From Promethearchaeia archaeon (GTDB lineage: Archaea; Asgardarchaeota; Lokiarchaeia; Sigyniarchaeales; SOKP01): a stretch of 32,000 nucleotides of DNA. Positions 3,308 through 4,529 of this stretch are shown here, one piece after another. The first letter of the stretch is position 1, and each line of letters opens with the position of its first letter. The DNA lies in NCBI GenBank assembly GCA_046497275.1, contig JAWOFX010000041.1:46279-78278 (forward strand). The letters run 5' to 3'. The notes below the pieces were generated by a model. It did not search any database. It had not been told where the DNA came from and saw only the letters and a program-made list of their open reading frames with translations. The position numbers and the translations under genes were made by a program.

Positions 3308-3424
3308 TTAGGGTCCGCTTTCAGAACAGCCAGGCATAAGCATACTTACGCCTGTTGTTGCCATGCTTAACCCATATGCTACAACCAGCATTAAAACTAA
3401 TACTGCAATTGTTTTTTTTTTCAT
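3308..3424 (-). CDS. 38-aa peptide MKKKTIAVLVLMLVVAYGLSMATTGVSMLMPGCSESGP; signal-peptide-like N-terminus; candidate ThiF substrate (RiPP precursor)
   Basis: ATG at 3424, TAA at 3310-3308. KKK n-region, hydrophobic h-region and a polar Cys/Ser-rich tail. The longer 72-aa version in the ORF track adds low-complexity AT-rich sequence that looks like intergenic or promoter DNA. Confidence 0.7.
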   Translation of the reverse strand: MKKKTIAVLVLMLVVAYGLSMATTGVSMLMPGCSESGP

Positions 3425-3430
3425 AATTAA

Positions 3431-3449
3431 TACCAAAATATTATTGGTA
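3431..3449. promoter_or_regulatory. Inverted repeat TACCAA-N7-TTGGTA just upstream of the peptide start
   Basis: Perfect 6-bp arms (3431-3436, 3444-3449) with an AT-only spacer, lying between a possible TATA-like CTTAAAAG (minus strand) and the ATG. Confidence 0.4.
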
Positions 3450-3533
3450 CTTTTAAGTATCGATTCACCTATATAAAACCCACAAAAATTTTCTTTTATA
3501 GTAAAAATTATTGTATAAAAATCCATTAAGAAA

Positions 3534-4529
3534 TTAAGTATTTAACTTATATTTATTACAGAGACATGTGTTTAGTTTTTTAATCGGGACTTTAATAATT
3601 TCAATGTTGTGTGCATCATAAATTAAAAAACAACCATGCAAACCATAATCAATATCATTTATATCAAATATAATTAAATTTGACATAATACTTCCAATTA
3701 TAATAGCAACTAATCCCAAACTATAACCATATTTATCCCCTTTATTTTGAGTTTTGTATCGTAAAAATGGAATAGTATCAAAAATATCCTTAGAAGCAAA
3801 TATGTCTCTTAAGCAAGGGGTTCTTTTTGAGGGAGAGTAGGAATAAGTCTCTCCCAGAAAATAATTTATCCCCCCCCAGTAAAATGATTTTCTATTCTTT
3901 ACACATAAATCATTAATAAGATAGGGTGCTCCCTTGTAATCCATGGCATTAATAACATAATCACTTTCAGAGATTATTGAATTTATCCTTACAACGTTTT
4001 CAGGGTATTCATTTGAAGAGATTTCTAATAGTTCCAAATCTTTCGGATAGTTCAATTCTATATTATATTTTTCAATTTTTATTTCAGGGTTGATTTCTAA
4101 AAGTTTCTCTTGAGTAGATTCTGTTTTAGGTTTCCCAATATCTTTTGGAGTATATAATGTTTGACGATTTAAATTAGAAAGTTCTACTTTATCATAGTCT
4201 ATAATATAAAAATTGCTCACCCCAGAGTATACTAAATTCATTAATACATTAGTTCCAATTCCTCCTAATCCAAAAACAGTTATTTTTGCATCCTTAATTT
4301 TTTTTTGATTTAATAAAGGATTTTGGAGCTGTCGACTCCATCTTGTCTGTTCTATAGAACTTAAAGAATTTATATCAATTTCTTTATTTTTTAAGTCATT
4401 AGAAATTTGTTCAATTTGCCTTAAAAACAATTTCTTTTTAACACTCTTTAAATCAGGTTGATTTTTATATCTCTTATCTAAAATTTTATTTATGAATTTG
4501 ATCTTGAATTGTTTTTTTGAGTTCATCAT
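3534..4529 (-). CDS. ThiF/MoeB/HesA-family adenylyltransferase with N-terminal extension
   Basis: WSRQ, GLGGIG nucleotide-binding loop, DYDKVELSNLNRQ, GKPK, AMD, PCLRD and a C-terminal CLC. Confidence 0.9.
   Translation of the reverse strand: MMNSKKQFKIKFINKILDKRYKNQPDLKSVKKKLFLRQIEQISNDLKNKEIDINSLSSIEQTRWSRQLQNPLLNQKKIKDAKITVFGLGGIGTNVLMNLVYSGVSNFYIIDYDKVELSNLNRQTLYTPKDIGKPKTESTQEKLLEINPEIKIEKYNIELNYPKDLELLEISSNEYPENVVRINSIISESDYVINAMDYKGAPYLINDLCVKNRKSFYWGGINYFLGETYSYSPSKRTPCLRDIFASKDIFDTIPFLRYKTQNKGDKYGYSLGLVAIIIGSIMSNLIIFDINDIDYGLHGCFLIYDAHNIEIIKVPIKKLNTCLCNKYKLNT

Follow-up and report, generated by a model that had tools for sequence, protein, structure and literature searches.

Is a tiny open reading frame (ORF) downstream of a ThiF-type gene the substrate of that enzyme? 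The question is raised by a 32,000-nucleotide stretch of the genome of a Promethearchaeia archaeon of the Sigyniarchaeales (GenBank assembly GCA_046497275.1, contig JAWOFX010000041.1, positions 46,279 to 78,278), hereafter the window. Its minus strand carries a gene for a ThiF/MoeB-type adenylyltransferase (T), an ORF of 38 codons (P) and the gene for a giant protein (G). A sequence-only reading had taken T and P for an enzyme and its dedicated precursor in a locus for a peptide made on the ribosome and modified after translation (RiPP). Our analysis leads to a different answer, which we hold to be probable, if only just. P would be an autonomous, dosage-driven, exported or membrane mini-protein of a new Lokiarchaeal family, and T would play an accessory part in a gene cluster built around G, the two being recurrent neighbours and not an obligate pair. 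The comparison set consisted of 154 species genomes of the same order, including the window's own genome (G000) and a sister genome (G002). The features of the T-P region are as follows.

3534-4529, minus strand: T, ThiF/MoeB-type adenylyltransferase, 331 amino acids (PF00899, E 1.2e-46)
3470-3477, minus strand: TATA-box-like octamer TTTATATA, 46-53 nt 5' of the ATG of P and within the T-P spacer, a common upstream element of the family
3430-3449, minus strand: inverted repeat TACCAATA(n4-6)TATTGGTA in the 5' leader of P, overlapping a GGT ribosome-binding-like site, from aligned upstream regions
3308-3424, minus strand: gene P, 38 codons, translation MKKKTIAVLVLMLVVAYGLSMATTGVSMLMPGCSESGP, supported by its translation, the family alignment and purifying selection
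3308-3424, minus strand: build of P as read from the translation, MKKK, hydrophobic helix, S-M-A small-x-small site, tail TTGVSMLMPGCSESGP
about 3267-3285, minus strand: oligo-T run T5CT6CT4, about 25-45 nt past the stop of P, archaeal terminator-like from its sequence

The layout itself, a ThiF gene followed on one strand by a spacer, a tiny ORF and an oligo-T run, was confirmed at every coordinate, and the spacer measures exactly 109 nt. Order and spacing of the proposed pair thus stand. P has, however, its own TATA box inside this spacer, so that the pair is no simple two-gene operon.

The mini-protein family of P

A six-frame search recovered 50 copies of P at E<1e-3 in 29 of the 154 genomes, with one to four copies per genome. 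The window's genome holds a second copy (G000:C14) which is 86% identical to the first. Family members span 36-40 codons, have the start region and the stop in common and follow the consensus M..KK.IVALA.LL.VAYGLSMA.AGVS.PGC.E..P. Their tail, GVSxPGCxExxP, is nearly invariant, with an invariant Cys and a nearly invariant Glu two residues apart. Homologues with matching start, stop and tail in 29 genomes place the ORF far beyond chance. Moreover, differences between the copies amount to 6126 at first, 3579 at second and 12001 at third codon positions, third positions thus differing about twice as often as first and more than three times as often as second ones. Paralogues within one genome, for example the three of G010, encode the same peptide while their DNA differs at 14-20 of 102 nt; such identity despite 14-20 synonymous differences indicates strong purifying selection on the protein. 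The tiny ORF is in this respect the genuine conserved product that had been supposed.

Some members depart from the family pattern. The G014 copy (L101, G014:C64, 3708-3815, minus strand) has an in-frame TAA after codon 15 (MELSKKRMATLLL*LTLSYGLS...) and looks like a pseudogene. In G012 (L102, G012:C52, about 5970-6089, minus strand) a diverged member that lacks the Cys (…YGLQLSTYGLGWFGGPGSEGSP) is oriented divergently to a gene for a giant protein, and variants from G030, P0077 and P0088 have PGF in place of PGC.

Neither Pfam nor NCBIfam gave a match for P. When 1.84 billion cluster representatives were searched with a profile, 27 hits came back, every one from P's own small family; the ESM Atlas yielded only unnamed clusters, and cluster look-ups gave 'hypothetical protein' throughout. 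A literature search on the motif GVSIPGC and on Asgard archaea, RiPPs and ThiF found no description of the family. As far as these searches reach, the P family is confined to Lokiarchaeia and is without database name or published description.

Copies of P are equipped for expression on their own. The octamer TTTA[AT]ATA was found 45-85 nt upstream of the start in 30 of 40 copies, where the DNA of these loci would lead one to expect about 2%. A GGTG-like site precedes the start by 6-10 nt in most copies, and a run of at least five T lies within 80 nt of the stop in all 40. Judged by these signals, each copy is its own transcription unit with promoter and terminator. Diverged genes for one peptide behind strong consensus promoters point to a need for P at high dosage. 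The inverted repeat of the leader is common to the genus-level copies (window, G000:C14 and G002:C30) and may form a hairpin for translational control.

The genomic surroundings of P were surveyed over 6 kb on each side of 40 copies; neighbours were clustered and the recurrent ones annotated. Altogether, 42 of the 50 copies stand in contexts unrelated to T or G, of many kinds and mostly housekeeping, and the other eight are at most about 2 kb away from a ThiF orthologue or the giant protein. Six loci, from three genera, share the most frequent context, M28 peptidase > signal peptidase S26 > Alba > P; the second copy of the window's genome is among them. Other copies lie 3' of a metallo-beta-lactamase-fold hydrolase, a threonine aldolase, a TPR protein, a Ras-like GTPase or a thiamine pyrophosphate enzyme (in the last case with adenylosuccinate synthetase, PurA, coming next).

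In the alignment, inspected by eye, all copies show lysines at positions 3 and 4, a hydrophobic stretch of 20-23 residues and then an S/N-M/L-A or A-x-A site. The stretch is also long enough for a membrane anchor. P is thus probably an exported or membrane product. Judging by its Lys-rich end, its hydrophobic helix of about 20 residues and its small-x-small site, it would use the general secretion route to enter or cross the membrane, and the Cys/Glu tail would come to lie outside. It could then stay as a single-pass anchor, or signal peptidase could cut it and free a peptide of about 12-16 residues. Two other signal types were considered and rejected. A class III (pilin-type) signal does not fit, the residue after KK being variable (T, A, L, V, I, S). 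A lipoprotein precursor does not fit either: where a lipobox would read [LVI][ASTVI][GAS]C, the copies read x-P-G-C, position -2 being always Pro and position -3 taking many residues (I, V, T, F, Y, S, Q, G, M).

The same features allow another view of P, namely a membrane micro-protein that is type-I-toxin-like or purely structural, or else a precursor of the lipobox type with cleavage ahead of Cys33, with no tie to T or G and with adjacencies left over from ancestral synteny. Multiple intergenic, self-promoted copies of about 38 amino acids with a charged end and one hydrophobic helix agree with this view. Conservation of the exact tail motif at the level of the order is, however, unusual for type I toxins, and the lipobox rules are violated at -2, always Pro, and at the variable -3. 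We return to its genomic side below and regard it as quite improbable.

A likeness is also found in the Phr-type pro-peptides of Bacillus. These are precursors of about 40 amino acids with a secretion signal, a short active C-terminal part, their own promoter and several paralogues; the tails have diversified, with Rap proteins as the matching receptors. P has a similar precursor build, but its tail is nearly invariant, it has no known receptor and its host is an archaeon.

The adenylyltransferase T and the giant protein G

T matches PF00899 at 159 bits (cut-off 28). An N-terminal two-helix extension precedes the ATP-binding motifs GLGGIG and SNLNRQ. In 36 orthologues G87, G89, G90, G92, D111, D113, S118-N121, Q123, K135 and D190 are invariant, as are C239, C322 and C324 (C322-x-C324) of the Zn site. 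The fourth ligand is a Cys in most orthologues (aCLRCiF) and an Asp in T of the window and of G002 (PCLRDIF), the four-Cys site thus being remodelled. No conserved crossover-region cysteine, the catalytic Cys of E1 enzymes, was found in the orthologue alignments. By these residues T is classed as an intact adenylation enzyme without the E1 catalytic cysteine.

In an AlphaFold model of T (predicted local distance difference test, pLDDT, 81) the extension consists of helices 2-20 and 25-44 (pLDDT 72-89) and a disordered linker, with no beta-strands. As modelled, the N-terminus is a two-helix hairpin and not a winged-helix RiPP recognition element (RRE) or peptide clamp. In fold T is matched best by ThiF and MoeB of E. 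coli (PDB 1ZUD, 1JW9; template modelling (TM) score 0.87-0.89 on the target, Foldseek E 3e-19), followed by MccB, Uba5 and PaaA; MccB is also among the best sequence matches. With the two E. coli enzymes T shares the ATP-binding motifs and a Cys-rich Zn site. It differs in the conserved extra hairpin of about 45 residues with its linker, and in having no adjacent carrier that ends in GG; its partner is the 1216-residue G.

Orthologues of T (39-63% identity, the full-length ones keeping the extension) occur in 16 of the 154 genomes, and 46 further sequence clusters come from metagenomes. In one genus an orthologue of 532 amino acids is fused to an N-terminal GNAT domain (L090, G013:C36, 7136-8734, minus strand); in the sister genome of G013 this GNAT has a gene of its own, upstream (L091, G023:C51, 5866-6435, minus strand).

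What lies around T in the window is listed here.

1-3039, minus strand: G, first 1013 codons, start at 3039, about 270 nt beyond P
G000:C136:45670-49317: full G gene, 1216 amino acids, its ORF leaving the window
4868-8764: block of TPR protein > HAD hydrolase > < gamma subunit of acetyl-CoA decarbonylase/synthase (CdhD)
9034-9255, plus strand: ThiS/MoaD-like (beta-grasp-like) ORF, 73 amino acids, GTG start, end IAGGN

The last of these suggests that T might work in the manner of an E1 and activate a ubiquitin-like protein, a sulfur carrier or a modifier, such as the IAGGN protein after trimming of the final Asn. The near-terminal GG of a ThiS/MoaD-like ORF 4.5 kb away would suit such a role, as would the fold of T, whose nearest matches, ThiF and MoeB, have carriers of this kind as substrates. 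Several points count against it. The IAGGN ORF is kept at 58-81% identity, with GG retained, in the TPR/HAD/CdhD block of four genera, and it is syntenic with that block in genomes that have no T (G016, G116, G044, G046); being conserved there, it is not the specific partner of T. T and this ORF are on separate contigs in G013 and G023. No ORF of 45-130 amino acids ending in GG was found in the window or in the 15 T loci scanned, and none adjoins a T orthologue there. Four other ThiF-family genes of the window's genome are available for housekeeping roles, and T lacks the conserved crossover-loop Cys. We therefore judge a carrier-activating T to be very unlikely.

G was found in 117 of the 154 genomes. 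In one Lokiarchaeal family 116 of the 134 genomes have it, sometimes in two to four copies, and it is absent from the other three families of the order. Pfam, NCBIfam and a sequence profile search of the PDB gave no match, and no sequence relatives outside Lokiarchaeia were found. The model of a homologue (pLDDT 86, predicted TM score 0.85) aligns over residues 206-770 to NirDL, a double Lrp/AsnC fold (Z 13.9 over 296 residues). Residues 10-202 are predicted to be zincin-like without HEXXH (Z about 8, borderline), and two further ferredoxin/ACT-like modules are modelled. G may thus be compared to the siroheme decarboxylases NirDL/AhbAB and to Lrp/AsnC regulators (PDB 4CZC, 2IA0), but it is four times longer and has in addition the putative zincin-like domain and the two ferredoxin-like modules. 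Foldseek matches of G to AcrB-type pumps had TM <0.1 and were treated as noise.

The most frequent neighbour of G is a divergent gene for a major facilitator superfamily (MFS) transporter, present in 22 of 39 loci. A transporter gene divergent from its regulator gene is a common layout of the Lrp type, and G resembles this in often being divergent from a transporter gene. T adjoins G in at least 9 of the 16 GTDB loci (G000, G003, G009, G013, G023, G100, G104, G109, G112) and in 7 of the 11 metagenome contexts examined (L109, L110, L111, L114, L115, L117 and the P0097 contig), in tandem, divergent or convergent orientation. Genes for B12-binding radical S-adenosylmethionine (rSAM) enzymes occur in 25 of the 154 genomes, at least eight of which have them next to G. 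T has beside it, in some loci, a SAM methyltransferase, a GNAT, a formyltransferase or an Rce1-like protease. All these genes, the MFS gene included, centre on G; the window contains none of them, and in its genome T and P stand between CdhD and G, exactly where most relatives have the MFS gene. G is most likely the constant partner of T and the hub of a variable cluster. T would most likely activate the carboxylate of some substrate handled by this cluster, that is, MFS transporter with or without T, B12-rSAM, and methyltransferase or GNAT.

The C-terminal tail of G was considered as a substrate of T and rejected, the tails being variable and alike with or without an adjacent T. A neighbour of T in G037, a genome from another family of the order, was considered as a diverged giant protein (L092, G037:C407, 2779-6429, minus strand; 1216 amino acids, divergent); it is unrelated and contains a prenyltransferase alpha-alpha toroid domain.

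Linkage of P with T and G

If P were the obligate substrate of T, the two should travel together. Their distributions are discordant: five genomes have T without P (G100, G104, G107, G109, G112) and 19 have P without T. Four of the 16 GTDB loci with a T orthologue, and 7 of the 11 metagenome contexts examined, have P adjoining T or within 2 kb of it; from the other readable loci P is absent. No other conserved small ORF flanks the T orthologues, including MccA-like tiny ORFs ending in Asn. Most T loci are thus without an adjacent small ORF, an outcome which the sequence-only reading had itself named as refuting a dedicated pair of ThiF enzyme and precursor.

The preferred reading accordingly treats P as something other than the obligate substrate of T. 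Several observations nevertheless weigh against it and favour a RiPP-like pathway in which T, joined in relatives by B12-rSAM, methyltransferase or GNAT and MFS proteins, acts on the local copy of P. T would adenylate Glu35 or the C-terminal carboxylate; attack by Cys33 could then give a small thiolactone, or the AMP could stay. G would be a scaffold, sensor or regulator. First, at least eight arrangements, from five GTDB genera and seven metagenome contigs, place P no further than about 1 kb from T or G: T>P>G (window, G002, L109, L110), T>G><P (L111, L114), G><P (G014, where P is the pseudogene and T is on a separate short contig), T><P (G047, L112, L113), <P T>G (L117), G>P (G010, G054), P>G (G022), and T>rSAM>P (G024) or rSAM>P (G030). 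In the latter two the radical-SAM gene is directly 5' of P. This adjacency is far above the chance level of about 0.2% per locus and hints at a functional tie. Secondly, the T-linked copies of the window's clade have an insertion of 2-3 residues before PGC and keep PGC-x-E, while changing faster around that motif. Nonsynonymous against synonymous codon changes number 4-5 against 8-11 in T-linked P and 1 against 11 in canonical P; by these counts the T-linked copies evolve faster yet stay under selection. Finally, and as a point against the preferred reading only, the export and cleavage of P are deduced from its sequence.

There is also a precedent. The GRC RiPPs of Streptococcus are made from the 39-residue precursor GrcA by the ThiF-like GrcB, the radical-SAM enzymes GrcC/D, the RRE protein GrcE and the transporter GrcF, and GrcB joins a Glu/Cys pair of GrcA into a thiolactone (PMC12250964). 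The Cys/Glu pair of P resembles this pair. P is also of similar size, about 39 residues, with Cys and Glu near the C-terminus; T is ThiF-like without the E1 cysteine; and the clusters of T's relatives contain radical-SAM and transporter genes. The MFS, methyltransferase, GNAT and rSAM neighbours of T in relatives mirror ThiF-type RiPP clusters more generally. They echo mccB-C-D-E of microcin C (MccA heptapeptide, MccB, MFS pump MccC, methyltransferase-like MccD, GNAT MccE; PDB 3H5N), to which the fusion of GNAT to T in G013 and the match of T to MccB add.

These likenesses have limits. MccB, GrcB and EnfB bind the leader through an N-terminal winged-helix RRE or peptide clamp, which GrcB needs (PMC12250964), whereas the model of T predicts the two-helix hairpin in this place. 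GrcA is dedicated, adjacent and single-copy; P is multi-copy, self-promoted, mostly unlinked and provided with a secretion-type N-terminus. From microcin C the system differs in having no conserved Asn-ending tiny ORF by the T orthologues and no peptide clamp in T, and the window itself has no MFS, methyltransferase or GNAT gene. The assignment of the locus to the microcin C type of ThiF-dependent RiPP loci is therefore partly supported at most, P being multi-copy, self-promoted and mostly elsewhere, and the modelled T having no RRE or clamp. What survives of the RiPP interpretation is the set of modifying and transport genes near T in relatives and the adjacency of P to T or G above chance; the obligate pairing does not.

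Two further points count against modification of P by T. P is equally conserved in the 19 genomes without T, so that something other than T must account for the retention of its Cys and Glu; and with its secretion-type N-terminus and its own promoter and terminator, P would leave the reach of a cytoplasmic T. The ring chemistry meets a difficulty as well. A fixed C-terminal thiolactone had been proposed, but the T-linked copy of the sister genome G002 ends in CSEAHPKL, as compared to CSESGP in the window, and a tail of variable length after Cys counts against a fixed ring. A predicted complex of the T dimer with P reached a median score of 0.12 against a mark of 0.32, a result which weighs neither way on binding. 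Considering the missing RRE of the model, the discordant distributions and the many T loci without P or another conserved small ORF, we regard the RiPP-like pathway as unlikely.

Part of the adjacency may have a simpler origin. The block TPR > HAD > < CdhD beside G is syntenic across several genera, and this synteny indicates that some of the nearness of P is inherited, as the toxin-like or structural view of P would have it. On the other hand, the nearness of P to T or G has outlasted several inversions and insertions. A wider scheme combines the elements into a Lokiarchaeal peptide system around G: exported P would be tailored in some lineages by T (thiolactone or adenylation) and B12-rSAM, the MFS transporter would carry it, and G would sense or regulate it, with the degenerate zincin-like domain binding the peptide. 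We consider this scheme rather improbable.

Implications for Asgard archaea

No known prokaryotes are more closely related to eukaryotes than the Asgard archaea. To our knowledge, almost nothing is known about their small proteins, their surface chemistry and their cell-to-cell signalling. Three elements are defined here. The first is a tightly conserved, multi-copy, self-promoted family of mini-proteins with a putatively exposed Cys/Glu tail, nameless in the databases searched. The second is a protein of about 1200 amino acids and new architecture, present family-wide, that anchors a variable cluster of transporter, ThiF and B12-radical-SAM genes. The third is a recurrent, non-obligate physical link of P with T and G.

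If the G-centred peptide system were true, Asgard archaea would have in it their first peptide circuit of a RiPP-like or quorum type. If T does modify P, ThiF-type peptide chemistry would reach archaea. If it does not, the mini-protein is still a candidate for an abundant component of the envelope or of a signal in these organisms.

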